Origin: an uncultured bacterium
Lineage (GTDB): Bacteria; UBA8481
Assembly (NCBI GenBank): GCA_964499705.1
Contig: CAZCME010000013.1
Location: 45,217-109,216 of the forward strand
Length of the DNA: 64,000 nt
Direction of reading: 5' to 3'
The position numbers and the translations under genes were made by a program. The notes beneath the pieces are model-generated. The model ran no database searches and had not been told where the DNA came from. It saw only the letters and a list, made by a program, of their open reading frames with translations. Positions 2,199 through 45,283 of this stretch are shown piece by piece. Within the stretch, counting starts at the first letter, position 1; each line of letters begins with the position of its first letter.

Positions 2199-2200
2199 GG

Positions 2201-2228
2201 GGGGACATTCTCCAACATTCCAACATTG
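2201..2228 (-). repeat. 28-bp REP-like repeat, copy 1 (reverse orientation of CAATGTTGGAATGTTGGAGAATGTCCCC)
   Basis: Exact GGGGACATTCTCCAACATTCCAACATTG immediately after the stop of the kinase-like gene; inverted partner lies 67 bp downstream. Confidence 0.8.
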
Positions 2229-2295
2229 GCAATATTGAAGTTCACAATCCTTCCATGGAACTTTCCTTCGCAAAAGCACGTAACTCCTTCTGACA

Positions 2296-2323
2296 CAATG
2301 TTGGAATGTTGGAGAATGTCCCC
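2296..2323 (+). repeat. 28-bp REP-like repeat, copy 2 (CAATGTTGGAATGTTGGAGAATGTCCCC)
   Basis: Exact reverse complement of copy 1; together they form an inverted doublet with a 67-bp spacer (2229..2295). Confidence 0.8.
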
Positions 2324-2433
2324 TGTCTCCACTTCGCGACAGTCTGTTCGGATTCCAACGACACTAAAACTTACATAAACCAAGTTTGACCCATTGAAAT
2401 TACACCATTTGCGCGAATCCCATCCATGGCACA

Positions 2434-6963: not shown

Positions 6964-7359
6964 TCATTCATCGTACGAAACCGCGGTGTGATGGCTGTAT
7001 TCGCCTATATGCGGCGGAAGCGACCAGCCCCGGCATCGCGCGTGACAACGATAGCAGACGGCAAGCTGGGGGACACGGCGGTAGAGCAACCAGTCGATGA
7101 GAGCCGCGACGGGAAGAGAGAGGCCGTATGTGGACGGCACGAGACCGATCGCAACGAGCATGATGGCGCATCCCAAGGCGGTGTTGAAATCGCGCTGGAG
7201 GTAGAAGTGCGGGCAATCGCAGAGCGGGCAATGTTCGAATGAGAATTCCGCATCGGGCAGGCTGAATGTTTTTCCGCACGCGGAACATTTCAAATTGCCG
7301 TCCGTGACGCAGATCGATGCCTTGCAGCCCGGACAATGACCGTCGATCGAACGGCTCAA
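6964..7359 (-). CDS. Zinc-ribbon membrane protein, hypothetical
   Basis: ORF with CPGC...CSAC and CPLCDC...CYRCHARC cysteine pairs flanking a hydrophobic segment; overlaps the stop of the upstream membrane protein gene by 4 nt (7356..7359). Confidence 0.5.
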   Translation of the reverse strand: MSRSIDGHCPGCKASICVTDGNLKCSACGKTFSLPDAEFSFEHCPLCDCPHFYLQRDFNTALGCAIMLVAIGLVPSTYGLSLPVAALIDWLLYRRVPQLAVCYRCHARCRGWSLPPHIGEYSHHTAVSYDE

Positions 7360-23584: not shown

Positions 23585-23729
23585 TGGCAGTGAAACTTCT
23601 TACATAACAATTGCGGACCAGATAGATCCTGTATTATACTGGTTTCGGATAAAGGGCATCAGTCGTTACTGACCCTTATCCTTGTTCCAGGATTCCATTG
23701 ACTGTGAACAATATTGCATCGGAGCTGAA

Positions 23730-24788
23730 ATGAAGCGCGTCGAACCCGCCTTGGTCAACGTGAAATTCGCGAAATTCCCGACGCCAACTGCTGCCGTTCT
23801 TGAGCTGACGAACAGATGCAACGAACAATGCATTCACTGCATTCGCGAATCACCCGATCTACGATTCGACGACGAACTTGCGACCGCCGAATGGCTGAAG
23901 GTCGTTGATGATCTTGCGGACATCCGTACTTTTTCCGTATGTCTGACGGGTGGAGAGTGCACGATCCACCCCGGGTTCCTGGAAATCATCGACCGATGCC
24001 GAAGCCATCGCATTAATGTGTCGATAAAGACAAATGCACTTTCGTTGGCGCGAATCGCGCCGATGCTAGCGCGCAAGGGAGTCGGATTCATTGAAATCTC
24101 GCTGTACGGCGCGACACCGGAATCGCACGATCGGTGCACCCGGATTTCCGGTTCATTCCAGCGTCTCGTCGAGGGTGTCAAGGCGGCGAGAAAAAACGGT
24201 ATTCCAGTCTCCATGAACGCGATTGTCTTTCGATGGAATGCTCATGAGGCTCTTGCGATGCGCCGGCTTGGCCAGGAACTGGATTGCCCGATCAAACGCG
24301 ACTTCATGCTCTCGACCACCGATCTTGGCAGGCACCTCGATCTGGAATTGGTGACGTCTGCCCAGATTCGAGAAATCGAGTCGATCTGGCCCATGAACAC
24401 GCTGCCGGGCGCGCAGAACCGTCTTTCCCGGGTAAAAATCTGTACTCAGGGCATGAACACAGTCTGCGTAACCGCGCGTGGCGAAGTACTTTCATGCGTC
24501 ACGATCCGCAAGCCGCTCGGCAACGTCAGAAAAAATGGCCTCGCCGATACCTGGCTCACCACGACGGGAGGTCACAGCGGTGCAGCCCGGCGAGCGCATG
24601 ACGTGGACTACGGGAATTTCACTCGCTGCGAAGCGTGCAAGCATCTTCCGGTCTGCAGCGTCTGCCTGGGACAAAACTTCGCCGCCACCGGCAGCTTTTA
24701 CGAACCTCCCCTTGAAAGATGCTTTATTACCATGTCATTATTCGGTAACAAGGAAGGGATGGAAAATGGAAAGGAAGTCCATGCGTAA
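23730..24788 (+). CDS. Radical SAM enzyme with C-terminal SPASM/twitch-like cysteine cluster (putative peptide maturase)
   Basis: ORF 23682..24788 (TTG) trimmed to ATG 23730 with GGAG upstream. CNEQCIHC (Cx3Cx2C) radical SAM cluster near the N-terminus; C-terminal CEACKHLPVCSVC auxiliary-cluster motif. Confidence 0.8.
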   Translation: MKRVEPALVNVKFAKFPTPTAAVLELTNRCNEQCIHCIRESPDLRFDDELATAEWLKVVDDLADIRTFSVCLTGGECTIHPGFLEIIDRCRSHRINVSIKTNALSLARIAPMLARKGVGFIEISLYGATPESHDRCTRISGSFQRLVEGVKAARKNGIPVSMNAIVFRWNAHEALAMRRLGQELDCPIKRDFMLSTTDLGRHLDLELVTSAQIREIESIWPMNTLPGAQNRLSRVKICTQGMNTVCVTARGEVLSCVTIRKPLGNVRKNGLADTWLTTTGGHSGAARRAHDVDYGNFTRCEACKHLPVCSVCLGQNFAATGSFYEPPLERCFITMSLFGNKEGMENGKEVHA

Positions 24789-29292: not shown

Positions 29293-29367
29293 TTTGTTTC
29301 AGCCGGAAAATGGATTTTCGCGAACTGAAATCGTAAATCCTCAATCCTTATGATACAGTTTCACCCC

Positions 29368-32055
29368 ATGTTGACCTCTTCCGACATCCGCGAGTCGTTC
29401 CTCGGCTTCTTCGAGAAAAAAGGCCACCGCCGCGTGCCGTCGTCGCCCCTGCTGCCCGCGGAGGATCCGACCCTTCTGTTCACGAACGCGGGCATGAACC
29501 AGTTCAAGCTCGTTTTCACCGGCCGCGAATCGCGCGACTACAACCGGGCGGCTTCCTCGCAGCGTTGCGTGCGTGCGGGCGGCAAGCATAACGACCTGGA
29601 GAATGTCGGATACACGGCTCGCCACCACACCTTCTTCGAAATGCTGGGCAATTTCTCCTTCGGGGATTACTTCAAGGAAGGCGCCATCTCCTTCGCTTAC
29701 GATCTCCTCGTTCGAGAATGGAAGATGGATCCGGCGCGGCTCCTCTTCACGGTCTTCTCCGGCGAAGGCGGAATCCCGGCCGACGACGAGGCGCGCTCGT
29801 TGTGGAAGAAGATCGCGGGAGTCGGAGACGACCGCGTGCTGGGGCTGGGGATGCAGGACAATTTCTGGGCGATGGGCGACACGGGGCCGTGCGGACCGTG
29901 TTCCGAGATCCATTACCACCTGGGCGACGACATCGCGTGCGCGGAAGAGTCGGCCGGACGAAAATGCAAAGGTGTCGCGTGCGATTGCGACCGCTGGATG
30001 GAGATCTGGAACCTTGTCTTCATGCAGTACGAGCGATCGGGCGAAGGCGTGCTGACTCCCCTGCCTGCTCCCTCGATCGACACGGGCATGGGACTGGAGC
30101 GCGTCACCGCGGTCCTGCAGGGTAAACGCTCCAACTACGATACCGATCTTTTCCAGCGGATCATCGCGGAGATCGGATCGCGCATGAACAGGACCTATGG
30201 TCAGGAGGAGACGACCGACGTCTCCCTCAGGGTCGTCGCGGATCACCTCCGCGCCGCCGCGTTTCTCATCGCGGACGGCATCTATCCCTCGAACGAAGGG
30301 CGGGGCTATGTGCTGCGGAGGATCATGCGCCGTATGATCCGGCATGTCCGACTGATGGGTTCGCACGAACCCGTGGCCTTCACGCTCGTGCCCGTTCTCG
30401 TCGAGCTGATGGGCCAGGCTCATCCCGTCCTGGAAGAACGCGCGGCGATCATCACGCAGGCGATCCGCCGCGAGGAGGAGACATTCCTCGTCACGCTCGA
30501 TCGGGGCCTGTTGCTCCTGGACGAAGCCATCGCATCCCTGAAGGAGAAGACGATCCCCGGCAGCATCGTCTTCAAGCTGTATGACACATACGGATTTCCT
30601 CCGGACCTGACCGCCCTTCTCGCGCGCGACCGGAATCTCGCGATCGACCAGCCGGGATTCGACGCGGAAATGGCGGCTCAGCGGGATCGTTCGAGAAAGG
30701 CTTCGAGCTTCGAAGCGGCGGCGGAGATCGACACGGATGTGGAGACGCCGACGGAGTTCGTGGGATACGAGGAGCTCCGCGCGGATGCGCGCGTCCTCAC
30801 GGTCTTTCCCGAGGCGAACGGGAAGCATTGCGTCGTCCTCGATCGTTCGCCTTTCTACGCCGAGTCCGGCGGCCAGGTCGGCGATCAAGGCCTCATTTCG
30901 GGCGGAACAGCCCGCTTCCAGGTGGAGGGAACCATCAAGAATTCCCGGGGTGTTTATTTCCACACGGGCGTATTCGAATCCGGAATGCTCGACGTGGGCG
31001 CCCTAGTCCGCGCGGAGGTCAATCGCGGTGCGCGCGTGGCGACGGAGCGCCATCATACGGGAACGCATCTGCTTCACGCCGCGCTTCACGAAGTGCTGGG
31101 AGATCACGTACGGCAGGCCGGGTCGCTCGTGACGCCCGACAGGCTGCGCTTCGACTTCGCTCATTTCCAGGCCATGACTCCGGAAGAAATCCGAAAGGTC
31201 GAAGAAATCGCGAACGCCGCCGTGCTCGCCGACCTGGATGTCACGAAGCGGGTCTACCCCATAGAGGAAGCGAAGAAGATGGGGGCGAAGATGTTCTTCG
31301 GGGACAAGTACGGGGAACTGGTCCGCGTCGTCTCGATCGAAGGGCGCAGCGATTACGGCGAGAGCTCTTCGGCCGCTCGGGAAGTTGCATCGCGAGAGTT
31401 CTGCGGCGGCACTCATGTCCGGCGGAGCGGCGAGATCGGGATCATCAGGATCCTCTCGGAGTCGGCCATCTCGGCGGGAGTCCGGCGCATGGAAGCCGTG
31501 GCCGGAACGAAAGCGCTGGAGCATGTCGTCCGCCACGAGGAGATACTGCACACGGTCGGAGCCAGGCTAACTTCGACCGTGGCTGAGCTGCCGGAGCGGC
31601 TGGAGCGGGTGCTCGACGAGAGGAAAAAGCTCCAGAAGGAACTGGCGCGAGCGCGCGCGGAAAAGGCGATGCGGGAGGCGGATGAAGCCGTGAAGGGATT
31701 TCAGGACCTCGGCGGCGTCCGGCTGGGCGCGGCCTTCATCGAGGACATCGATCGCACCGCCATGCGACTGGTCGGAGACAAGCTCTTGCAATCCATCGGC
31801 AGCGGCGTCATCATCGTCGGCAGCAATCCCGCCGATGACGAAGGCCGCAGGAAAGCCGCGCTCTGCGTCCTCGTCTCCAAAGATCGGACGAACATCGTCA
31901 AGGCGGGTGACATCGTCGCGCGGCTGGCGAAGATATGCGGCGGCGGCGGCGGGGGACGACCTGAGATTGCCGAAGCGGGCGGCAAGGATGCGGCGAAGGT
32001 GCCCGAGGCGATCGATGCCGCGGCCGGAATCGTAAAGGAGCTGATGAAAGCATGA
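29368..32055 (+). CDS. alaS: Alanine--tRNA ligase
   Basis: ORF 29350..32055 trimmed to Met 29368 (MLTSSDIRESFLGFFEKKGH...); class II aaRS motifs and AlaS editing/C-terminal regions (HHTGTHLLH). Confidence 0.9.
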   Translation: MLTSSDIRESFLGFFEKKGHRRVPSSPLLPAEDPTLLFTNAGMNQFKLVFTGRESRDYNRAASSQRCVRAGGKHNDLENVGYTARHHTFFEMLGNFSFGDYFKEGAISFAYDLLVREWKMDPARLLFTVFSGEGGIPADDEARSLWKKIAGVGDDRVLGLGMQDNFWAMGDTGPCGPCSEIHYHLGDDIACAEESAGRKCKGVACDCDRWMEIWNLVFMQYERSGEGVLTPLPAPSIDTGMGLERVTAVLQGKRSNYDTDLFQRIIAEIGSRMNRTYGQEETTDVSLRVVADHLRAAAFLIADGIYPSNEGRGYVLRRIMRRMIRHVRLMGSHEPVAFTLVPVLVELMGQAHPVLEERAAIITQAIRREEETFLVTLDRGLLLLDEAIASLKEKTIPGSIVFKLYDTYGFPPDLTALLARDRNLAIDQPGFDAEMAAQRDRSRKASSFEAAAEIDTDVETPTEFVGYEELRADARVLTVFPEANGKHCVVLDRSPFYAESGGQVGDQGLISGGTARFQVEGTIKNSRGVYFHTGVFESGMLDVGALVRAEVNRGARVATERHHTGTHLLHAALHEVLGDHVRQAGSLVTPDRLRFDFAHFQAMTPEEIRKVEEIANAAVLADLDVTKRVYPIEEAKKMGAKMFFGDKYGELVRVVSIEGRSDYGESSSAAREVASREFCGGTHVRRSGEIGIIRILSESAISAGVRRMEAVAGTKALEHVVRHEEILHTVGARLTSTVAELPERLERVLDERKKLQKELARARAEKAMREADEAVKGFQDLGGVRLGAAFIEDIDRTAMRLVGDKLLQSIGSGVIIVGSNPADDEGRRKAALCVLVSKDRTNIVKAGDIVARLAKICGGGGGGRPEIAEAGGKDAAKVPEAIDAAAGIVKELMKA

Positions 32056-32241: not shown

Positions 32242-32649
32242 TTGAGCAAGCCCTCGACCGTCCTCGCCGTCGACGCCGGCACGGTCCGGATCGGCTTGGC
32301 GATTTCCGACGAGACCGGCACGTTTGCATTTCCCCTCGAAGTCATCCCCGCAAAAAATGCGATTGCGCGAATCAAGGCGCTCTGCGAGGAGCGCACGGTG
32401 ACGCAGGTGATCGTGGGACTGCCGCTGACGATGAAGGGAGACATCGGCCCCGAAGCCGCGCGTGTGGAGAAGTTCATCCGGAAACTTCAGCGCGCTCTTC
32501 AACCCCTGCCCGTGACCGCCGTCGATGAACGGCTCAGTTCACTCGTGGCGGACCGTATTCTCGAATCCGGCAAGGGACACCCAAAGCGCGACGCCGTGGC
32601 GGCGGCGGTGATACTGGAGAGCTATCTGAAGACGATCAATGACAAATGA
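32242..32649 (+). CDS. ruvX: Putative pre-16S rRNA nuclease / Holliday junction resolvase-like protein (RuvX/YqgF)
   Basis: 135-aa ORF (TTG start in track) with VLAVDAGTVRIGLAISD... and VIVGLPLTMKGDIGPEA; canonical position downstream of alaS. Confidence 0.8.
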   Translation: MSKPSTVLAVDAGTVRIGLAISDETGTFAFPLEVIPAKNAIARIKALCEERTVTQVIVGLPLTMKGDIGPEAARVEKFIRKLQRALQPLPVTAVDERLSSLVADRILESGKGHPKRDAVAAAVILESYLKTINDK

Positions 32650-32719
32650 CGAATGAACAACGACTGATGAACAATTCCTGATTGTTCATCAGTCGTTGTT
32701 CATTCGTCATTTGTCATTG
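32637..32719. terminator. Perfect 39-bp inverted repeat with 5-nt loop; candidate bidirectional terminator
   Basis: Arms 32637..32675 and 32681..32719 are exact reverse complements (loop TCCTG). The arms contain the last codons and stops of convergent ruvX and asnB, so both proteins end in NDK. Confidence 0.5.
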
Positions 32720-34617
32720 GAACCCTGGTCCGCAAACTGACGGTGCCATAGCTCCAGCATCAGAAGCGCCCAGAGACGGAAGGCATTATTGCGGCGACCG
32801 GCCTTGTGGTCATCAATGAGGCGTTCGATGACTTCGCGCTTGAAGTAGCCGCGCGCGAGGGAACCCGAGTCCAGGAGGATCTCGCGAATATATCCGTGCA
32901 GCTCGCCCTGGAACCAATGCGAAAGCGGAACGCTGAAGCCCATCTTTCTTCGATAGAGAATCTCATACGGCAATATTCCGTGATGCGCTTCCTTCAAAAT
33001 TTTCTTCGACGAGAACGCTCCGACTTTCCACGTCCGCGGCAGGGAAGCGGCGAACTCCATGATCGACGTGTCGAGGAGAGGCGATCGGGTTTCGAGCGAG
33101 ACGGCCATGGAGGCGACATCGACCTTCACGAGAAGCGTATCCGGCAGGTACATGAGCGTATCGGAACGGAGAACGCGGTCGACGAGATCGGCCTTGCGGG
33201 GATTGTCCCAGCCGTCGGTCATGAGACGGAGGAGATAATCGTCGGCGGAGTGGTTGCCGAGCCGGGCGCGAAATTCGTCGGAGTACATCTGTTGCCGCGC
33301 CTCGGCGTCGAAGTATGCGAAGATGCTGAGATTGAACTTGTCCGGAGTGCATTGCGAGGCTCGCGCGAAGCGGCGGATCTTCCTCGCGAGCGATCGGTTT
33401 TGCACTCCCTCGGGAAGCCATGACGTCGCTTTTTCCGTGAGCGAGCGTATGCCGGAGGTCGTGAGGCTGGAATAAAGCCCGTGCATGAGGAGCGCGCGGT
33501 AGCGCTCGTAGCCACCGAAGTATTCGTCTCCCCCGTCGCCGTTCAACGCCACCGTGACGCGCTGGCGCGTCATGCGGCTGACGTAGTAGGTCGGCAGGGC
33601 GGACGAGTCGGCGTAGGGCTGGTCGTAGTGCCAGACGAGCTTCGGCAGGATCTCCATGGCGTCCGGTTCGACGATGAATTCCTCGTGCTGCGTGCCAAAC
33701 TTCTCCGCGACCATCCGGGCATACTGGGTCTCGTTGAAATCCCTGTTCGGAAATCCGATGGAAAACGTTTTGACCGGCGCGGAGGATACTTCCGCCATGG
33801 CGGAAACCACCGCCGAGGAATCGACGCCTCCGGAAAGAAACGCGCCGAGCGGAACGTCGGATATGAGCCGGGCTTTTGTGGCGTCGACGATCAATTCGCG
33901 TAGCCTGATTTTCGCGTCGTCGTACGAGAGATCGGTCTTCCGGACCCAATCCGCCTGCCAGTAGGTTTCGATCTTTGCGCTTTCGCCTGTCCAGACGAGT
34001 CGCGAAGCGGGAGGCAGGCGATGCACGCCATTGAAGATGGTTTTCGTTCCCGGAATCGACTGATATGTAAGATACAGATCGATCGACTCCGGATCGATTT
34101 CGCGCGGGCAGTTCGGAAGCGTCAGGAGCGCCTTGATCTCCGACGCGAAGTAGATCCCCTCGGCGTCCTCGAACCAGTACACCGGTTTTTTGCCCGCGCG
34201 ATCGCGCGCGATGAGGAGCGAGCGATCCCGCGTGTTCCAGATCGCGAACGCGAACATGCCCCTCAGTTTTTCCGGAACGCGCGCGCCGAGTTCCTCATAG
34301 AGATGAACGATCGCCTCCGTGTCGGAATGCGTCCGAAATCGATGACCCCTGGATTCCAGATCCGGCCGCAGCTCGAGAAAGTTGTATACCTCCCCGTTGA
34401 ACGTGATCCAGACCGATTCGTCCTCGTTGGACAAGGGTTGCCTGCCGCCCTCGAGATCGATGATGGAGAGCCGGCGATGTCCAAGCCCACAGCCTTCCAG
34501 CGCGACGTGCCCTTCCCCGTCGGGACCGCGATGGACCAGCGTATCGGTCATACGTTTGAGAACGGAAACGTCGGGCTTGCGCCCATCTCGATAAACAATT
34601 CCAGCTATGCCGCACAT
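32707..34617 (-). CDS. asnB: Asparagine synthase (glutamine-hydrolysing)
   Basis: ORF 32707..34647 trimmed to Met 34617 so the protein begins MCGIAGIV (catalytic Cys2); PP-loop SGGVDSS; the upstream 10 codons of the track ORF are encoded by a repeat copy. Confidence 0.85.
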   Translation of the reverse strand: MCGIAGIVYRDGRKPDVSVLKRMTDTLVHRGPDGEGHVALEGCGLGHRRLSIIDLEGGRQPLSNEDESVWITFNGEVYNFLELRPDLESRGHRFRTHSDTEAIVHLYEELGARVPEKLRGMFAFAIWNTRDRSLLIARDRAGKKPVYWFEDAEGIYFASEIKALLTLPNCPREIDPESIDLYLTYQSIPGTKTIFNGVHRLPPASRLVWTGESAKIETYWQADWVRKTDLSYDDAKIRLRELIVDATKARLISDVPLGAFLSGGVDSSAVVSAMAEVSSAPVKTFSIGFPNRDFNETQYARMVAEKFGTQHEEFIVEPDAMEILPKLVWHYDQPYADSSALPTYYVSRMTRQRVTVALNGDGGDEYFGGYERYRALLMHGLYSSLTTSGIRSLTEKATSWLPEGVQNRSLARKIRRFARASQCTPDKFNLSIFAYFDAEARQQMYSDEFRARLGNHSADDYLLRLMTDGWDNPRKADLVDRVLRSDTLMYLPDTLLVKVDVASMAVSLETRSPLLDTSIMEFAASLPRTWKVGAFSSKKILKEAHHGILPYEILYRRKMGFSVPLSHWFQGELHGYIREILLDSGSLARGYFKREVIERLIDDHKAGRRNNAFRLWALLMLELWHRQFADQGSNDK

Positions 34618-34629
34618 GGGGGAAGAATA

Positions 34630-34657
34630 GGGGACATTCTCCAACATTCCAACATTG
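34630..34657 (-). repeat. 28-bp REP-like repeat, copy 3
   Basis: Exact GGGGACATTCTCCAACATTCCAACATTG; on the minus strand it ends 12 nt upstream of the asnB ATG. Confidence 0.8.
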
Positions 34658-34826
34658 AGGATGAAGGAGTTATGGAATTCATTCCTAAAGGAATCATGAA
34701 AAGTTCATCATCATCTCGCGGGAAAATGCATCTGGGATATTTTTCAAGGCTGGAATCGCTGAAAATAGGGTCCAACACGCGAATGCGTCTGAGTTTTCAT
34801 CGTTTCAACCCCGATAAAATCCAGAC

Positions 34827-35849
34827 CTAAACGACTAACTCCTGCTGCGTCAATGTTGGAATGTTGGAGAATGTCCCCCTGATTGCTTCGGCAAGGGCTC
34901 CTTTGCGCCTGTCTTTTCGCATGCGAGAAACGATCATCGAATAATAACCATTCGGGTGGCGATCGCCGTCCTCATGCTGGATACGGTCGTAGGTCCAGCG
35001 GGCCAGCTCATGCGCAATGTAGATCGTGAGTTCGCGGTGCATCGCCTCGATCGACGACCATGCCTGGCGGCGCATTTCGGATGTGGCCATGACGAACCGG
35101 TCGGCCATCTGCTGAAGATCGCTCCAGGACCACGACACGGCGTCGCGGTCCATCGTGCGTCGCTTTCTGGTTTCTTCGAACCGCTGACGGCGTTCCGTCT
35201 GGAGTTCGATACGCTTTCGAAATAGATGCGAGCTCATGAAACGGCCGTTATGGCCCTCGCGAAACAGTGTTTCGTTGGATTCTGCGTTGAGTTCATTGAA
35301 CCATCTGTCCAATACGCCCAACTGTTTAACATGATCGAAGGAGGAGATGTTCTTTCCGAAGAGTTGCTCGGCGAGCAGATGCCGGTCGACGCGATTTCTC
35401 TGGGTTCCCATGCCCAGCATTTCCCGCGCACTGCACCAAGGATAAAGAAGCGGATCGCGTACGAAACCGGCACGGACTGGATTGAGGATGATGTAGGCGA
35501 CGACGGTTTCAAAGTAGGACTCCGTCTCGATGACGAGCGACTTCGATCTGCCCTGGAAGAGGTGGCCGGTCCGGTCGTGGCGTCGGTTGAGTTCCTGAGA
35601 GGCGCGCGTCAAAAATCGCCGCAGGAATTCCGAAATGTCGCCGCCGGGCGTTCGAAGGCAGAAATGAAAATGATTCGGCATGAGACAATAGGCATACGTG
35701 ACGACGCGAAACATCTTTGCCGACTCGAAATAGAGATCGAGAAATCGACGGTAATCGGACTCGTGCTGGAAGAACGGGTGCTTGTCGACGAAGCGATTGA
35801 GGACGTGGTAGACGGCGTCCTTGTAGGCGATGCGTGGACCTCTGGACAT
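34827..35849 (-). CDS. IS200-like Y1 (HUH) transposase, REP-associated tyrosine transposase (RAYT)-like
   Basis: 340-aa ORF; HUH motif CLMPNHFHFCL and tyrosine motif VAYIILNPVRAGFV align by eye with the PEHMHCIW and YIYINPVK regions of E. coli RayT; N-terminal AVYHVLNR. C-terminal codons read through a repeat copy. Confidence 0.75.
   Translation of the reverse strand: MSRGPRIAYKDAVYHVLNRFVDKHPFFQHESDYRRFLDLYFESAKMFRVVTYAYCLMPNHFHFCLRTPGGDISEFLRRFLTRASQELNRRHDRTGHLFQGRSKSLVIETESYFETVVAYIILNPVRAGFVRDPLLYPWCSAREMLGMGTQRNRVDRHLLAEQLFGKNISSFDHVKQLGVLDRWFNELNAESNETLFREGHNGRFMSSHLFRKRIELQTERRQRFEETRKRRTMDRDAVSWSWSDLQQMADRFVMATSEMRRQAWSSIEAMHRELTIYIAHELARWTYDRIQHEDGDRHPNGYYSMIVSRMRKDRRKGALAEAIRGTFSNIPTLTQQELVV
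34851..34878 (+). repeat. 28-bp REP-like repeat, copy 4
   Basis: Exact CAATGTTGGAATGTTGGAGAATGTCCCC; inverted partner of copy 3 with a 193-bp spacer; lies inside the last ~17 codons of the transposase ORF. Confidence 0.8.
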
Positions 35850-35860
35850 GGCGATGTCTC

Positions 35861-36202
35861 CTATCGGCTTGCGGTGCGGTCGAAATAGTCGCGGACGATG
35901 TTACGGAAGCGTGTGGATCGATGAGGAAGTTCGGCGAGCCATCGCATGTATGTCGGGTCGCGCCGGCTGATCTCCTCGAGCGACCGGCCGCGATGCTTGC
36001 CGAACGCGATTCGATGCGACCTGCCGTGGGGAATCAAACCGGATCGCTTCCGTTCGAAGTTATCGCTGCAGGCGGCTGAATAGACCTCGTCGGCCTTCCG
36101 GAAGGCTTCGTCTTCCGATAGGCCGATACTTCTGAAAATTCCGAATGCACAGGCGCGATCCTGCTCCGGGCTGGTCACTTTCCGCCGATCCTGTTTCGCC
36201 AT
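35861..36202 (-). CDS. Small protein with exodeoxyribonuclease X C-terminal-like (DUF3820-like) motif
   Basis: ORF 35861..36373 trimmed to Met 36202 (MAKQDRRKVTSP...); IAFGKHRGRSLEEISRRDPTYMRWLAEL resembles the FGKYKG...DP.YL.WL motif of that family (recalled, not searched). Confidence 0.45.
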   Translation of the reverse strand: MAKQDRRKVTSPEQDRACAFGIFRSIGLSEDEAFRKADEVYSAACSDNFERKRSGLIPHGRSHRIAFGKHRGRSLEEISRRDPTYMRWLAELPHRSTRFRNIVRDYFDRTASR

Positions 36203-36286
36203 TGTGGTCTCCTTTCGTGATTGAGTGTCATACAGAGCAGAAGTTGTGCCGGCAGAAGTGCTTATTTTCCAGCAAGAGCATATCCG

Positions 36287-36332
36287 GAAAAGTGTCGAAT
36301 CCTGGACACATGTCCAGAATTCGACACTTTTC
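36287..36332. promoter_or_regulatory. 46-bp imperfect dyad symmetry, candidate operator
   Basis: GAAAAGTGTCGAAT-CCTGGACA-CA-TGTCCAGA-ATTCGACACTTTTC; 14-bp outer arms perfect, inner arms 7 of 8; located ~85 bp upstream of the small gene preceding the transposase. Confidence 0.3.
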
Positions 36333-36551
36333 ACGCACAGGATTCTCAGGATCAACAGGATGAAAACCGGCAAATCATATATTTTGAACGTTCATCCTAT
36401 CCTGTGGATCCTGCTCAATATTGAAGCGAAAATAATATTTGCAGTGGCTATAGAGCTCGGGTATTGACTACGGGGACAGATATTTCTTGGATTGGAGCGC
36501 AGCCAGGATTTTGACTGCCGGCTGCAAAAATGTGTTCTATGATGAAAATGG

Positions 36552-37496
36552 ATGAAAATGGGCCGTCCAATCACTTTTCAGTTGTTGATTGGATCTATTC
36601 TTTTACTTTTTGCCGACGAAGGTCCCGCCGGAATCTGCCTTCTCTATTTCAGTCAGAACATCGCTACTTTTGGTCGAATTGCGTTTCATTCACGATCCAG
36701 ACGAATGATCGCGCTCGGCCTCATTCTTATTTTGGTTCAGATATTTTTTTGCATGAAACTTTTCTTTGCTCTCACGCTAGACACATTCGAGTTGCTTCTT
36801 CGCAACAACTTTATTCCTGCCGTTTTCGTTTTCTTCCTCGAAGGTGCGACAGTCGATGAGGCAATGGCGAAGCGCGCCGGCTTTTGGATCTTTCTAATTA
36901 ACTGGGCGATTCTCTCGGCCGGTATGATTGCGTTTGCTCGACTAAAAGCTGAGCACCACCTTCAATTCGCTATCATTGCGTTGGTAGCTCTCTGCAAAGG
37001 ACTGTCGCAACTGGCGCCAACATTGCGTGAAAACCGCAAGCGAACTCCGTTTGGGCACGCGGCATACGGGGTACTCGTTCTGATAATGCTATTCGGTTTC
37101 TATCACACAATTGGAAGCGAGCGTCCATCTGTTGATTACGCGGGCGCGCTTGAACGTGCATTAACGACAGGCGATTCAGAACAAGCGATTGCGCTTTTGC
37201 AATTAACCAATCCTTCCGGGCAAATCGTGGTCGCCCACCAGGTCGACGGCACACCTGCAATCGAGCTCGCGCTGCAATCTCAGTTGCCGCAGGTTCGCAA
37301 AGCGGCAATTAGAACGTATGAGGTCTGGATGATCAACGCCGTCGATCGGGATCCATCCGATCGTGATGACCTTGAACGTCGCTACAAATCTCACATGACC
37401 CCGCTACTGTCCGATCCTGTATCAAGAATTCAAGAACTGGCGAGGGAAGCATATGAAAATCCAAAAGGCTATTCGGGATGGAGAAGCCCGTTCTAA
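36552..37496 (+). CDS. Hypothetical membrane protein with C-terminal helical-repeat region
   Basis: 314-aa ORF in an AT-richer stretch; several hydrophobic helices then a soluble C-terminal part (ALLQLTNPSGQIVVAHQVDGTPAIELALQSQLPQVRKAAIRTYEV); start uncertain. Confidence 0.45.
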   Translation: MKMGRPITFQLLIGSILLLFADEGPAGICLLYFSQNIATFGRIAFHSRSRRMIALGLILILVQIFFCMKLFFALTLDTFELLLRNNFIPAVFVFFLEGATVDEAMAKRAGFWIFLINWAILSAGMIAFARLKAEHHLQFAIIALVALCKGLSQLAPTLRENRKRTPFGHAAYGVLVLIMLFGFYHTIGSERPSVDYAGALERALTTGDSEQAIALLQLTNPSGQIVVAHQVDGTPAIELALQSQLPQVRKAAIRTYEVWMINAVDRDPSDRDDLERRYKSHMTPLLSDPVSRIQELAREAYENPKGYSGWRSPF

Positions 37497-37627
37497 TTTT
37501 CGTGACTGTGAAAGGAGATATTCTCTACATTCCTACATTTAAATAAATGAGTTGCAGAAGCGTCATTCCGGCGAATACAAAATTTGCATTTGCTCTGAAC
37601 AACTGCCTTCTCTAACTCCATCATCCT

Positions 37628-37655
37628 CAATGTTGGAATGTTGGAGAATGTCCCC
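37628..37655 (+). repeat. 28-bp REP-like repeat, copy 5
   Basis: Exact CAATGTTGGAATGTTGGAGAATGTCCCC ending 14 nt upstream of the STAS gene ATG. Confidence 0.8.
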
Positions 37656-37669
37656 CTATACTCCCTCTC

Positions 37670-38035
37670 ATGGAATTCGATCGCATACCGGGGGACACCG
37701 TCACTCGCTTCATTCTCTCAGGCTCCATGGAGACGGGGCGGTTCGAGCGGTTTCGCTTCGAGGCCAAGGATGCCGTCATCCCGCAGTCGCCCCACCTGAT
37801 GCTCGATGTGTCCGGCGTCGACTTCATCGATTCGTGCGGGATCGGGACGATGATCGAGCTCTTCAAGCACACGAAACTCCACGGCGGGGAGCTCATCATC
37901 GCGGGAATGCAGGAGCACCTCGTCAAGCTCTTCCAGATGCTGAAGCTCGATACGTTCTTCACCATGGTGCCCGACTTATCCGCCGGAGAAGCTCTGCTGG
38001 CGAAGATTCGCCGCAGGGATCAGGGCGTGTCATGA
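37670..38035 (+). CDS. STAS-domain protein (anti-sigma-factor antagonist-like)
   Basis: 121-aa ORF; LMLDVSGVDFIDSCGIGTMIELFKHTKLHGGELIIAGMQEHLVKLFQMLKLDTFF is a SpoIIAA/STAS pattern. Confidence 0.75.
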   Translation: MEFDRIPGDTVTRFILSGSMETGRFERFRFEAKDAVIPQSPHLMLDVSGVDFIDSCGIGTMIELFKHTKLHGGELIIAGMQEHLVKLFQMLKLDTFFTMVPDLSAGEALLAKIRRRDQGVS

Positions 38036-39477
38036 CGCCGGAGAACGACAAGGCTCCGGCGGAATCGGTTTTGCCCGGGTCCGCGTCCCCGAAAACCGCT
38101 CAGCTCGAATCGATCTTCTCCCAGCTCGACAAGATCCAGAAGCAGGTTTCACTGACGAGGCACGAGCGGCCGATGACGGAGATGTTCTTCGAAGTGCGCG
38201 AGCGGAAGTCGGTCCTCTTCGCCAACATATCCCGCGCCGTTCTGAAAAGCCTTTCCAGCCACGATCGTATGATGACAATGATCCGCAGCTCCATGTCGCG
38301 GGAGGAAAAATCGCGCGAATTGAAGGCGAGTTCCGCGGTCATTCTTCAGGATGTACTCTCCGCACTGGCAGCATCGCTGACGACGCGCGAGAAGGAACTC
38401 GTCCTCCTGGAGATCATCGACGAGGTCCTCGGCCTGGGCCCCATCGAGCAGCTGATCCGGGACCGGGAGATCGGGGAGATCATGATCAACGGGCCGGACT
38501 TCATTTTCATCGAGCGGCGCGGCAAGATCGAGCTTACTCCGCTGAAATTCCAGGATACCGAGCACCTCATGAAGACGGTGGAGAAGATCCTCTCGCCGGT
38601 GGGCCGCCGCGTGAACGAGTCGACTCCCTGTGTCGACGCGCGCCTGGCGGACGGCTCGCGCGTCCACGTCGCCATCGCTCCGGTCGCCCTGAACGGCCCT
38701 CTCGTGACGATCCGGAAATTCCCGGAGCGCGCATTGACGCTCGACGACTTGATCGACGCGGGCACGCTCTCTCCGGCCATGGCGGATTTCCTGAAATGCT
38801 GCGTGGAAGGACAGTTGAATATTCTCGTGTCCGGAGGAACCGGCAGCGGAAAAACCACGCTCTTGAATGTGCTCGGCATGTTCATCCCGAGCGGAGAGCG
38901 GATCGTCGTCATCGAGGATTCGGCGGAACTGCAGATCCACCGGATGCACGTCAACGTCGCGCGACTGGAATCCAAGCTGGCCAACATGGAAGGGCGGGGC
39001 GAGATCCCGATCCGCGAATTATTGAGGAACGCGCTCAGGATGCGGCCAGACAGGATCGTCATCGGCGAGGTACGCGGAGGCGAAGCGTTCGAGATGCTGC
39101 AGGCGATGAACACCGGGCATGACGGCTCTCTTTCCACGGCGCACGCGAATTCGCCGATGGACATGATCCACAGGCTGGAAGGGATGTGCCTGATGGCGGG
39201 GCTCGACCTTCCGATTCCTGTCATCCGGCGGATGATCGCGGGAGGCCTCAACCTCATCATCCAACAGAACCGCCTGAAGGATGGAACTCGCCGAATGGTG
39301 GAAATCTCCGAGGTTGCCGGCATGGAGGACGGTCACGTCAAACTCCAGTCGCTCTGGAAATTCCGTTCGACCGGAACCGACGCGCGGGGAAGAATCGCGG
39401 GAGCGTTCGATCGATCGGCTCACCAGCCCAAGTGTCTCGACAAGCTCGTCTCGGCGGCGACGGAACTGAACCTGTAG
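38032..39477 (+). CDS. CpaF/TadA/VirB11-family secretion ATPase, orphan
   Basis: ATG 38032 overlaps the STAS stop (ATGA); Walker A VSGGTGSGKTTLLN, Walker B/Asp box IVVIEDSAEL, His box GHDGSLSTAHANS. The upstream 160 codons of track ORF 37552..39477 are out-of-frame read-through. Confidence 0.8.
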   Translation: MTPENDKAPAESVLPGSASPKTAQLESIFSQLDKIQKQVSLTRHERPMTEMFFEVRERKSVLFANISRAVLKSLSSHDRMMTMIRSSMSREEKSRELKASSAVILQDVLSALAASLTTREKELVLLEIIDEVLGLGPIEQLIRDREIGEIMINGPDFIFIERRGKIELTPLKFQDTEHLMKTVEKILSPVGRRVNESTPCVDARLADGSRVHVAIAPVALNGPLVTIRKFPERALTLDDLIDAGTLSPAMADFLKCCVEGQLNILVSGGTGSGKTTLLNVLGMFIPSGERIVVIEDSAELQIHRMHVNVARLESKLANMEGRGEIPIRELLRNALRMRPDRIVIGEVRGGEAFEMLQAMNTGHDGSLSTAHANSPMDMIHRLEGMCLMAGLDLPIPVIRRMIAGGLNLIIQQNRLKDGTRRMVEISEVAGMEDGHVKLQSLWKFRSTGTDARGRIAGAFDRSAHQPKCLDKLVSAATELNL

Positions 39478-42590: not shown

Positions 42591-44138
42591 ATGAAATGGA
42601 ACAGCTACGATTTCGTTCTCTCCGCTGACGCCCAGTGGAACGGCGCGAGCCAGGATTATATCCGCGACCTCCGGGAGTATCGCCGCGCCGATCTGAAGAG
42701 CGAATACCAGACGATCGTCTCTCCGGAACTGCATCGACTGTTGCCTCGACGGGCCGGACGAACGTTCGAGTCGGCCGACCAGAGCACATGCGTCCGGGTC
42801 AGGGCGATCGACCAGCGGATCGGATTCCCGGCGGAGTTCTTCCAGTGCATGCTCCAGAAGCCCCAGCACTACGTCGACTACCACAGCCGGCATCCGGCAT
42901 TCATGAGCCTCGTGCGGAACAATCACGCGAAGCTGAACGAAATCCTGGACGCGGGATTCCGCGCCTATTACGCGCGCGGCGTCTCTCCCGATCATGCGAT
43001 CTACGACGAGATCGACCGGCTCTTCCGCAGTGAAGACGCGGAAATGCGCGGGATGCTGAAGGGATACCTCACGCAGAAGCCGCAGCGCGCGATCTTCCTC
43101 ATCGACGTGGAGTCGGCACCGGCATCGCTGCCGTGGCTGGAGCCCGTCTACCAGACGATCAAGCACCACCTGCTGAACTGGGGGATCGACCACATCGCGG
43201 TCCTGACCGGAAAAGGTTATCACTTTGTTACGCAGGTTCCGCTGTATGCGGAACGCGGCATCCACGACGGCAAGGCGCATCTGAACTATGCAATGCTGAA
43301 CCTCATGGCGCGCGGCGGTCCCGTCAAACCCGAGACGCTCGACGGGCTCGTGTCCGTCCGCTGGGGCAGCCGTAAGCAGTCTCCGACGCCCCTCCTGTCG
43401 CAACGCTCCTACCAGGGCATGTGGAAGCTGCAGCAGTTTTTTCTCGTCAACATCGCCGACGACATCCGGCGCCAGCTCTCTCGCGCGAGGATGAATCCGT
43501 GGGTCAACTTCAGCGACACGGAGAAGGAGACCGTCATCCTGGACACGACGAGCATGCTGCGGCAGGTGGAGATGGGCGTCTTCGGCAGCGTCGGAAGCCT
43601 GTACAACAAGAAGAGAAATCCGCCGAAGGTCCGGATCATCCGCAGCCGGAACGGGCACGAATTCTTCCGGAACGACCTGAACTGGATGCTCTCCACGCGA
43701 ACCGATCTCGGCGCCGTGAAGCACCACCTCGTCCACACCGGTGGCCGCATCCCCGACGGCTCGCGTGGCATCGAGAACATGATCCACGGGTATGATTCCA
43801 GCCGGATGAAACGCGAACTGCACGACCCCTGCGACCGACCGCTCTCGCCGGAATGGATCTCCGAGATCTTTCAGTCGAACTACCGCATCATCTGGCAGCG
43901 GTGCCCGGAGATCCTCTCCCACATCGAGCACGCCCAGCCGAATTTCCTGAATCCGTCATGTCTCTCTTATGTCTATCGCCGCCTGGCCGCGCGCGGATTC
44001 TCCGTGCCGGAGATGATGACGATCACGAAGGCGGTGTACTGCGATCCGGCCAAGAACGTTCAGATCGACGGCAAGTATTCAAAGGACGAATGGTGCCGGT
44101 GGCCCGAGCTGCTGCTGGGAGAGTGGTTCAAGGGGTAG
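42591..44138 (+). CDS. Hypothetical protein, 515 aa, no recognisable domain
   Basis: Long ORF with genome-typical codon usage and non-repetitive composition; several His-rich segments (WGIDHIAVLTGKGYHF, HHLVHTGGRIPDG) but no motif I can assign. Confidence 0.55.
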   Translation: MKWNSYDFVLSADAQWNGASQDYIRDLREYRRADLKSEYQTIVSPELHRLLPRRAGRTFESADQSTCVRVRAIDQRIGFPAEFFQCMLQKPQHYVDYHSRHPAFMSLVRNNHAKLNEILDAGFRAYYARGVSPDHAIYDEIDRLFRSEDAEMRGMLKGYLTQKPQRAIFLIDVESAPASLPWLEPVYQTIKHHLLNWGIDHIAVLTGKGYHFVTQVPLYAERGIHDGKAHLNYAMLNLMARGGPVKPETLDGLVSVRWGSRKQSPTPLLSQRSYQGMWKLQQFFLVNIADDIRRQLSRARMNPWVNFSDTEKETVILDTTSMLRQVEMGVFGSVGSLYNKKRNPPKVRIIRSRNGHEFFRNDLNWMLSTRTDLGAVKHHLVHTGGRIPDGSRGIENMIHGYDSSRMKRELHDPCDRPLSPEWISEIFQSNYRIIWQRCPEILSHIEHAQPNFLNPSCLSYVYRRLAARGFSVPEMMTITKAVYCDPAKNVQIDGKYSKDEWCRWPELLLGEWFKG

Positions 44139-45037
44139 TGCTCACCACGATCACGTTCAGCTCCCGCGACCGGGAGACGGTTCAGGACCTGGACGAACGC
44201 TTCCATCGATCCGATGCCTGCGACCCCTGGGTCAAATCCTTCTTTATCCACGCTTATCGCGATCTCTTCGACGACATCAGGAGCGTCGCGCCGGCGGTCG
44301 CCGTGCCGTACAACTGCGGAACGCTCATCGCCGCTCCCAACGGCAAGCTCGTCGGCATCGACCTGACGCTTCTGGAGAATTATTACGGCGGTCGCGACTG
44401 GAATGTGCCGGGCTGGCTGTACGATCTCATCTCCGACCGTCTCGACGTCCTCATCGTCTCGCACGGGCACTGGGATCATTGCTGGGTGGAACTCATCTGG
44501 AGCATGATCCGGAAGGGCAAGACCGTGATCGTGCCGGAGGGAATCCGCACCTGCGCGCCCAAGTTCCTGCCGCAGGGGTGTCGCGGTGTAGCGGACGACG
44601 CGCGCTTCTGGTGGAACGGGCTCCATTTCGCCTTTCACCACAACAGGCACGTGTACGACGGCGGACGCGGCATGAATGTCCTGACGACGCGCATCTGGGA
44701 CGGCCGGAACGTCTACCTGCACACATCTGATGCGGACCCCACCGACGAGGAGCGATTCCGCTGGCACGATCCTCATCCTGTCGATGTGCTCCTCTTCAAG
44801 TTCGGCGGCGTCTCCCCCTTCGTCTCCGACTACGACGCCCTGGTCCGGACCGTGGACCTGATCTCCCCCCGAAAGCTCCTGCTGCCCATTCACCTGAACG
44901 AATTCGGCCATCGGGGCACGGGAGCCGCTCTGCCGTATGGGCACACGTATGACGTCTTCGAGAGGTATCGCGCGGAGGGTCGGCTCGGGTCGAGGCGGTA
45001 TGCCGTCCTCTTCGGGAACAGGATAGTCCGTCTGTAG
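44138..45037 (+). CDS. MBL-fold metallo-hydrolase-like protein
   Basis: Reading frame of ORF 43853..45037; contains VLIVSHGHWDHCW (HxHxDH) before the first internal ATG, so the start must be the GTG at 44138 overlapping the upstream stop (AAGGGG just 5'). Start uncertain. Confidence 0.5.
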   Translation: MLTTITFSSRDRETVQDLDERFHRSDACDPWVKSFFIHAYRDLFDDIRSVAPAVAVPYNCGTLIAAPNGKLVGIDLTLLENYYGGRDWNVPGWLYDLISDRLDVLIVSHGHWDHCWVELIWSMIRKGKTVIVPEGIRTCAPKFLPQGCRGVADDARFWWNGLHFAFHHNRHVYDGGRGMNVLTTRIWDGRNVYLHTSDADPTDEERFRWHDPHPVDVLLFKFGGVSPFVSDYDALVRTVDLISPRKLLLPIHLNEFGHRGTGAALPYGHTYDVFERYRAEGRLGSRRYAVLFGNRIVRL

Positions 45038-45040
45038 GGA

Positions 45041-45069
45041 GGGGAAATTCTATGTTGGAGAATGTCCCC
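45041..45069 (+). repeat. Degenerate hairpin copy of the 28-bp repeat family, copy 6
   Basis: GGGGAAATTCT-ATGTTGG-AGAATGTCCCC: the right half matches the family consensus (ATGTTGGAGAATGTCCCC), the left arm is its near-complement. Confidence 0.6.
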
Positions 45070-45283
45070 TTGACGCTGCGGCTTTCTCTTCGATATAGTT
45101 TCTCCTGAAGGATCCCTGATCCTTCCAAGCAGAGGCACCCGCCTCTCACCTCGCAGCCTGCCGCTGTTTCCGGCGCGGACTTGCGCGACCGAGGTTTTCG
45201 TGTTTTGCCTGTGACGACGTGTGTCCAGGGGGCGGGTATCCAAGGATCGGCCGGACAGCGCAGTTGAACAAGGAGACCGCGGA

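Follow-up and report, generated by a model that had tools for sequence, protein, structure and literature searches.

A probable TIRtron, with two orphan genes lodged inside it, next to asnB in an uncultured bacterium

In the genome of an uncultured bacterium (GTDB lineage UBA8481; GenBank assembly GCA_964499705.1, contig CAZCME010000013.1), a stretch of 64,000 nucleotides (hereafter, the window, with positions counted from its first nucleotide) includes a gene for a Y1 transposase that lies among copies of a short repeat, between asnB and a gene pair for a STAS protein and a TadA/CpaF-type ATPase. A preliminary description of this segment located all of its parts correctly (the transposase, a small protein, a dyad-symmetric site, a membrane protein and the neighboring genes; Table 1) and suggested that it interrupts core genes and may be a small mobile or recombination-prone islet. 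The question raised by this locus is whether it is such a unit or an arrangement of another kind. The evidence discussed below makes it probable that the segment is a TIRtron, that is, a unit of a previously described but functionally uncharacterized kind, in which a single-copy TIRYT gene is flanked by its cognate repeat in inverted orientation; in this case, two orphan genes are lodged inside.

The transposase (340 aa) matches the Pfam family Y1_Tnp (E=2.4e-9). The AlphaFold model built from an alignment of 17 homologs (pLDDT 85, with values below 50 for the tail residues 331-340) predicts an N-terminal nuclease domain of the HUH/tyrosine (Y1) type with the RAYT fold, followed by a C-terminal domain with the fold of DnaA domain IV. 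The HUH motif (H60-F61-H62) and Y119 in the motif YxxxNPxRAG are invariant among the 17 full-length homologs, which are 35-56% identical. The top match in the PDB by sequence is TnpA_REP (4er8), at a weak E = 0.08. The earlier designation of the protein as RAYT-like is correct. The features expected of a TIRYT protein are present, namely the Y1 core, the HUH motif, the catalytic tyrosine, the RAYT-like fold and a long protein with a C-terminal extension of the DnaA_C or helix-turn-helix (HTH) type. The exact protein is on record from metagenome assemblies of the Hainich aquifer (well H51) and from a groundwater metagenome-assembled genome of Candidatus Hydrogenedentota, and the closest relative detected among 5.8 billion protein clusters is 55% identical. 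Within the window, the gene is present in a single copy and no part of the unit is duplicated.

The second component of the unit is the repeat, which, as previously proposed, belongs with the transposase. Its 28-nt core, GGGGACATTCTCCAACATTCCAACATTG, occurs exactly at 2201(+), 2296(-), 34630(+), 34851(-) and 37628(-), against zero occurrences expected by chance, and the family in the window further includes a degenerate sixth and a truncated seventh copy. The extended unit (~44 nt) has a G-rich head, GGGGACATTC, followed by TCCAACAT as a tandem pair of 8-mers and by a tail that ends in GGAGTTA. In a 16-mer census, all the 16-mers that are present at least three times in the window derive from this repeat. 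A single unit is non-palindromic and folds no better than its shuffled versions (z = -0.36; 57 of 200 shuffles fold equally well). The copies are arranged as three convergent doublets, heads outward (2200-2325, 34630-34880 and 37513-37657), the last two of which bracket the transposase gene, and as single-stranded DNA (ssDNA) all three are predicted to fold into hairpins (z = -7.5 for the first, -8.1 for copies 3/4 and -4.2 for copies 5'/5). The census covers approximately 70 kb of this genome, that is, the window and an additional 6.4 kb beyond one of its ends in the replicate contig L170, where no further copy was found.

The doublet on the downstream side of the transposase gene is formed by copies 3 and 4, which are 163 nt apart; copy 4 lies within the gene, not outside it, and encodes the last 17 residues of the protein. 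On the upstream side, copy 5 forms a doublet with the degenerate copy 5', the alignment score of which (20) exceeds the shuffle maximum of 13 (0 of 300 shuffles). The properly oriented and best-matching bracketing pair is not copies 4 and 5, as originally suggested, but copies 3 and 5, which are 94% complementary over 48 nt (34630-34677 and 37608-37655). The doublet at 2200-2325, which encloses no gene, is a MITE/REPIN-like member of the same repeat family and is present also in two independent assemblies (L170 and L171). Copies 3 and 4 are separated by a 52-codon open reading frame (ORF; 34672-34830), the start of which is preceded by the repeat tail AAGGAG, a Shine-Dalgarno-like sequence; in homolog L003, the same tail (GGAGTTAGAC) is found ~10 nt ahead of the ATG of the transposase gene. 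The truncated copy lies just past the stop codon of another ORF (43853-45037) and is followed by TTGACG-18-TATAGT.

The same arrangement is typical of the homologs of the transposase. A metagenome scan added 80 loci, and the arms flanking the homologs were assessed by scripted alignment against shuffled sequences. For full-length homologs, significant inverted arms flank the gene in 11 of the 12 testable loci (scores of 21-37 vs shuffle maxima of 12-18), and in the close loci the upstream arm usually ends 2-26 nt ahead of the start codon and the downstream arm usually overlaps the stop codon. Inverted repeats, mostly with the head GGGGTCAG, also flank the more distant homologs in 24 of 31 loci. 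Three homologs reside on long contigs, each as a single gene amid housekeeping genes (proS and glycosyltransferases; rpsO-pnp and miaB; a T2SF/MoxR cluster) and each flanked by an inverted, genome-specific repeat that recurs elsewhere in the locus. At one locus (L004), doublets flank the gene on both sides and the sense copy overlaps its 3' end exactly like copy 4. In the close family, the arms follow a common plan, with the head GGKGWCATTC followed, at an offset of 10-11, by two tandem 8-mers (8 of 11 lineages). The two 8-mers are near-identical to each other and lineage-specific (TCCAACAT, TTCTACAT, GCCACTTT, TGCACAAA and TCTGACTT). The L004 locus (homolog P0008) has, in addition, a second repeat family of similar design (GGTGTCATTCTTGCAGTCTGACAGTTTC) at 1169-1228 and 10341-10442, in tight doublets with gaps of 2-5 nt distant from the transposase gene. 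Homologs P0003 and P0008 derive from one metagenome.

In a full-text literature search, the term TIRYT was found in two articles only, both of which are considered here in their accessible parts. RAYT-like genes flanked by non-palindromic terminal inverted repeats (TIRs) have been named TIRYTs, and the respective units TIRtrons; the head of many TIRs is GGGGWSAS, the repeats sometimes extend into the ends of the gene, and some are moderately abundant families found "in dimers or clusters" (Di Nocera, De Gregorio and Rocco, 2013; PMC3733652). Most TIRYTs belong to subclass 2.1 of TnpA-Y1 and have a Bac_DnaA_C or HTH-like C-terminus (Quentin et al., 2018; PMC6006769). The present locus resembles the units so described in the long (~330 aa) RAYT-like Y1/HUH protein with a C-terminal domain of the DnaA_C/HTH type, in the position of the gene between non-palindromic TIRs with a GGGG-W-S-A head, in the arms that overlap the gene ends, in the dispersal of TIRs as dimers and in the single-copy status of a gene amid housekeeping genes. 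It differs in its host, with the phylum Hydrogenedentota not among the species named in the accessible parts of the two articles; in the regular tandem pair of 8-mers behind the head, documented here across lineages and not mentioned in those same parts; and in the distance of 1.76 kb between the upstream arm (copy 5) and the start codon, which arises because two orphan genes and the dyad lie in between.

Other known systems share fewer of these features. REPtrons, or REPIN-RAYT systems (Nunvar, 2010; Bertels and Rainey, 2011, PMC3116915; 4er8, PMC3479197), likewise combine a single-copy gene flanked by its own repeat with dispersed, intergenic inverted doublets that form hairpins, and with flanking 16-mers that are the most abundant ones. 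However, a repetitive extragenic palindrome (REP) is an imperfect palindrome of 20-40 nt, whereas the units described here are non-palindromic and have neither GTAG nor CGTC at either end; furthermore, the transposase has an extra domain of ~200 aa and a score of 69.3 bits against the NCBIfam RAYT model (REP_Tyr_transpos, NF047646), below the cut-off of 80. Insertion sequences (IS) of the IS200/IS605 family, with a Y1 transposase TnpA (ISHp608; 2vhg), have subterminal hairpins and no TIRs, in contrast to the inverted repeats found here, which do not fold singly; they also occur in several near-identical copies, often with tnpB, whereas the window has one copy of the gene and no tnpB. The gene-less doublets resemble miniature inverted-repeat transposable elements (MITEs) in that the inverted repeats at their ends are those of the autonomous unit, and, as with the outward-facing -35 elements of IS, the repeat end provides a -35-like hexamer 17-18 nt from a resident -10. 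Unlike in MITEs and IS, the partner enzyme is a tyrosine HUH nuclease and not a DDE transposase, and no target-site duplication was seen; the role of the repeat in promoters is predicted from motifs.

The catalytic residues, the modeled folds, the repeat architecture and the dispersal of the repeat as gene-less doublets are direct observations. By analogy with RAYT/TnpA_REP and with IS200/IS605 (IS608), the HUH/tyrosine domain would cut and rejoin ssDNA at the conserved head, and the DnaA-domain-IV-like domain is the best candidate for a reader of the lineage-specific tandem 8-mers. The gene would remain where it is, and the enzyme, acting in trans, would spread gene-less doublets into intergenic DNA. 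Recognition of the 8-mers by the C-terminal domain would also answer an objection found in the accessible text of Quentin et al. (2018), namely that the GGGG head is unlike a DnaA box.

The only unusual part of the locus is an insert of 1.66 kb, within an otherwise ordinary TIRtron, between the start codon of the transposase gene and the upstream doublet. It contains a small gene, the dyad and an ORF for a membrane protein. The small protein shares a motif with Pfam ExoX-like_C (PF20600; E=6.8e-8), and its gene ends 11 nt upstream of the transposase gene on the same strand, so that the two genes are probably cotranscribed, in an apparent operon. Both have a GC content at third codon positions (GC3) of 0.69. 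A search of the 5.8 billion protein clusters for homologs of the small protein returned only the protein itself, and the AlphaFold model obtained without an alignment (pLDDT 57) was too poor for a fold search. The dyad (22-nt arms, 95% complementary, with a 2-nt gap; z = -8.9 for the ssDNA fold) is located 85 nt ahead of the small gene, in the intergenic region between divergent genes, and has no visible connection to the repeat family. Its half-site does not recur elsewhere in the window, and a search of the region against Rfam detected no family for it; the dyad most likely is an operator for a dimeric regulator in the divergent promoter region. PHROG and PADLOC searches yielded nothing for the three proteins of the region.

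The membrane protein is predicted to contain ~5-6 hydrophobic helices in its N-terminal half and to be soluble in its C-terminal half. Among 1.84 billion representative proteins, it matches only the representative of its own cluster and one further protein, weakly and over part of its length (E 9e-5), and it has no match in Pfam. The preliminary description of this gene as AT-rich and of unknown function is accurate, the gene being compositionally foreign and without a family match: its GC content is 0.49 and its GC3 is 0.495, compared to GC3 values of 0.75-0.83 in the flanking core genes and 0.69 in the transposase and small genes. In 400-nt windows (mean GC 0.602, standard deviation 0.046), those that start at 36201-36501 have the lowest values of the entire window (0.43-0.44). 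The lower GC content earlier noticed at 36.2-37.6 kb is thus confirmed (0.43-0.49), with the deviant composition limited to 36.2-37.5 kb. The DNA of the insert probably represents a secondary, lineage-specific acquisition, and the ORFan can be inferred to be, at least, horizontally acquired or very young. At its start, a 10-nt sequence (ATGAAAATGG) is perfectly duplicated in tandem (36542-36561), which gives two ATG-AAA-ATG starts in different frames, only the second of which opens the 314-codon ORF. In one replicate assembly (R3), the locus is split into two contigs (L002 and L173), which end at 36283, beside the dyad, and resume at 37065; the most AT-rich 0.78 kb (36283-37065) remained unassembled there at ~4x coverage. 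In 400-nt windows, GC also falls below 0.50 at 21600-23900 and around 6500.

The idea that the segment interrupts core genes is not supported: asnB and the STAS/ATPase pair are merely divergently transcribed neighbors. Four relatives of asnB (L087, L088, L089 and L007; 88, 77, 73 and 64% identical, respectively), the first three drawn from the database of 5.8 billion proteins and L007 from a collection of genome contigs, have different neighbors on both sides in each case, with neither the repeat nor a transposase nearby, and because of these differences no ancestral asnB/STAS junction can be inferred. For the same reason, the comparison for presence or absence of the segment was carried out but is without power. 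Replicate assemblies made independently provide five contigs, all of them collinear with the window (99.6-100% identity) and none with an empty site or a variant context, and an exact look-up of the STAS protein for strain variants retrieved collinear contigs only. No convincing direct repeats or target-site duplications flank the insert. A stretch ahead of asnB in L087 that visually resembled a decayed TIR aligned no better than shuffled sequences and was rejected as such. The transposase and its repeats are no evidence of recent insertion, since the relatives are typically single, repeat-flanked and located amid core genes. Separately, the replicate assembly R1 (L171) is 99.6% identical to positions 1-2784 of the window and then diverges completely (L171 2992-3509 vs the window from 2785 onward); the divergent part, which carries an ORF without a Pfam match, begins ~460 nt from the doublet of copies 1 and 2 and represents a structural variant at the strain level or else a chimeric assembly.

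The outer copies of the repeat abut the genes on either side. Class-II amidotransferases use an N-terminal cysteine, and therefore asnB starts at MCGIAG (34617), as do its relatives. The longest ORF starts at 34647, inside copy 3, and its 10 extra codons are repeat sequence; public gene calls accordingly give a protein of 646 aa from the ATG in copy 3, compared to 636 aa from the Cys-2 start. The head of copy 3 abuts a -10-like hexamer, TATTCT, 12 nt ahead of the asnB ATG, to give the geometry TTGGAA-17-TATTCT-6-ATG with TTGGAA from the repeat. Upstream of the STAS gene, the geometry is TTGGAA-18-TATACT-7-ATG, with TTGGAA internal to copy 5 and a promoter-like scanner match at 37633-37662. In the TIR-less relative L087, asnB is preceded by TTGGAT-17-TATCCT-6-ATG, with the same geometry. 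The other copies face gene 3' ends and have no such hexamer. Given that copies 3 and 5 place TTGGAA at the spacing of a -35 element, the repeat plausibly supplies the -35 of hybrid promoters and, judging from these motifs, probably serves in this capacity for near-leaderless asnB and STAS mRNAs. The doublets may act as terminators.

Several points count against the assignment of the segment to TIRtrons and the mechanism outlined above, or limit their reach. The gene-proximal upstream arm of the homologs is missing here, and copy 5 could therefore belong to an independent doublet instead of being the upstream arm proper; no significant relic of a TIR was found at 35850-36551, the interval that separates the start of the transposase gene from the ORFan (64 of 300 shuffles as good). 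One close homolog (L091) has no flanking arms. The head GGGGACAT fits GGGGWSAS, as given in the accessible text of Di Nocera et al. (2013), at 7 of 8 positions, with a T instead of C or G as the last base, whereas the head of homolog L003 (GGGGACAG) fits at 8 of 8. The repeat counts apply to the ~70 kb surveyed and are not genome-wide, and because an exact 23-mer of the core has no match in 185,579 species-representative genomes (this genome not among them), the family is known from this one population only. The promoter-like match of asnB is weak (8 of 12 positions) and was not reported by the scanner. Cleavage, recognition of the 8-mers through the C-terminal domain and mobilization in trans are all steps that we infer and, to our knowledge, the activity of a TIRYT has never been demonstrated, nor has any been biochemically tested.

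An alternative explanation is a chance neighborhood, in which copies 5' and 5 are an unrelated, independent doublet upstream of the STAS gene, the ORFan and the small gene arrived separately by horizontal transfer in a permissive intergenic gap, and the dyad belongs to these genes and not to the transposase system. This explanation draws on the empty doublet of copies 1 and 2, which shows that doublets insert independently, on the lack of a TIR relic beside the transposase start, and on the sharp difference in composition between the ORFan and the transposase and small genes. We consider it unlikely, however, given that the lack of an upstream arm would itself have to be explained when 11 of the 12 testable close homologs have one, that copy 5 is correctly oriented and the best match to copy 3, and that the small gene lies only 11 nt from the transposase gene, on the same strand and with a similar composition. 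Under another hypothesis, copies 3 and 5 delimit a 3.0-kb tyrosine-transposase element that captured passenger genes, inserted between asnB and the STAS operon, and moves as a single unit or did so until recently. The correct inversion and the high similarity of the outermost copies, the foreign DNA in the interior and the absence of the small gene and the ORFan from the other loci of the family (neither was found by tblastn against the homolog loci that were fetched), as would fit captured cargo, are compatible with this view. Nevertheless, a mobile islet, which the preliminary description suggested, seems very improbable: the transposase gene occurs once, no part of the unit recurs in the window, and the nearest relative of the transposase is only 55% identical; the ORFan and the small protein are essentially without occurrence elsewhere among billions of proteins; the independent assemblies are collinear and offer no empty site; no convincing flanking direct repeats were found; repeat-flanked, immobile genes are the norm in the family; and the GC3 of the transposase and small genes is near that of the host, so that only the ORFan is foreign. 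This test of mobility is a weak one, because the relatives available for comparison are not close enough to be informative. A related, likewise unlikely possibility is that the 3-kb unit bounded by copies 3 and 5 is the first TIRtron seen with passenger genes.

The promoter-like motifs raise the further possibility that the repeats are mainly promoter or operator modules and that the transposase-like protein is a domesticated DNA-binding regulator that acts through its DnaA-like domain on the tandem 8-mers to control asnB, the STAS/Tad ATPase operon and other genes, with little or no transposition at present. In agreement with this scenario, two of the five exact copies lie in the same orientation 12-14 nt ahead of start codons, with TTGGAA, which spans the junction of the tandem 8-mers, at -35 spacing; the five copies show no variation in the 28-nt core; and the C-terminal domain is predicted to have the fold of a double-stranded DNA (dsDNA)-binding domain. 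However, the invariance of the HUH and tyrosine residues across the family suggests that nuclease chemistry has been retained, the remaining copies point toward gene 3' ends or sit in a coding end where there is nothing to regulate, and the doublets and the truncated copy resemble products of transposition and decay, so that pure domestication appears highly doubtful. A broader proposal, also distinctly unlikely but slightly less so, is that the TIRYT and its repeats are more than a selfish element and constitute a wiring system for the whole genome. In this case, the DnaA-domain-IV-like domain would read the 8-mers as dsDNA and coevolve with them lineage by lineage; the doublets would be portable combinations of a terminator hairpin and an outward -35 that now drive near-leaderless genes, among them asnB and the STAS/Tad ATPase operon; and the TIRYT, perhaps together with the protein with the ExoX-C motif, would both place and occupy these modules.

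TIRYTs are numerous in uncultured phyla. The locus and its relatives yield a testable anatomy, in which the conserved head is the candidate cleavage site and the tandem 8-mers are candidate sites for the DnaA-like domain. As an islet, the finding is minor; its useful by-products are the family-wide plan of a head and tandem 8-mers paired with a DnaA-IV-like domain, the possible role of the repeats in promoters and two corrections to the annotation. For annotation, the locus teaches that the annotated asnB has 10 residues too many because its ORF extends into the repeat, that the tail of the transposase is repeat-encoded, and that a transposase accompanied by repeats in such genomes need not signal recent insertion. 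The motif arrangement also suggests that repeats can take the place of the -35 element in promoters of the host.

Table 1. Positions of the repeat copies, the genes and the dyad in the window
Feature	Position	Strand	Evidence
Empty TIR doublet, copies 1 and 2, 67 nt between	2200-2325		Exact cores; no gene inside
alaS	29350-32055	+	ORF and Pfam/NCBIfam matches
ruvX	32242-32649	+	ORF and Pfam/NCBIfam matches
asnB	32707-34617	-	ORF and Pfam/NCBIfam matches
TIR copy 3 (core 34630-34657), downstream bracketing arm	34630-34677	+	Exact 28-nt core
Y1 transposase (probable TIRYT gene), 340 aa	34827-35849	-	Pfam Y1_Tnp
TIR copy 4 (core 34851-34878)	34835-34880	-	Exact 28-nt core
ExoX-like_C protein, 113 aa	35861-36202	-	Pfam PF20600
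46-bp dyad	36287-36332		Inverted-repeat geometry
Membrane ORF (ORFan), 314 aa, no family	36552-37496	+	ORF
Degenerate TIR copy 5' (sixth copy)	37513-37553	+	Local alignment score 20
TIR copy 5 (core 37628-37655), upstream bracketing arm	37608-37657	-	Exact 28-nt core
STAS protein	37670-38035	+	ORF and Pfam/NCBIfam matches
TadA/CpaF-type ATPase	38032-39477	+	ORF and Pfam/NCBIfam matches
Truncated head-to-head mini-copy (seventh): GGGGAAATTCT-ATGTTGG-AGAATGTCCCC	45039-45071	-	16-mer census and sequence

Two additional repeats were observed that are separate from the TIR family. In L007, one of the contigs with an asnB relative, two CRISPR-like repeats (GTTTCCCCCGCACGCGCGGGGATGGACCG) are located at 7057-7151, at the end of this contig of Hydrogenedentota J006. 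In the window, the convergent genes ruvX and asnB are separated by a perfect 39-nt inverted repeat with a 5-nt gap (32637-32719); both ORFs terminate within its arms, both proteins end in NDK, and the inverted repeat probably functions as a bidirectional terminator.

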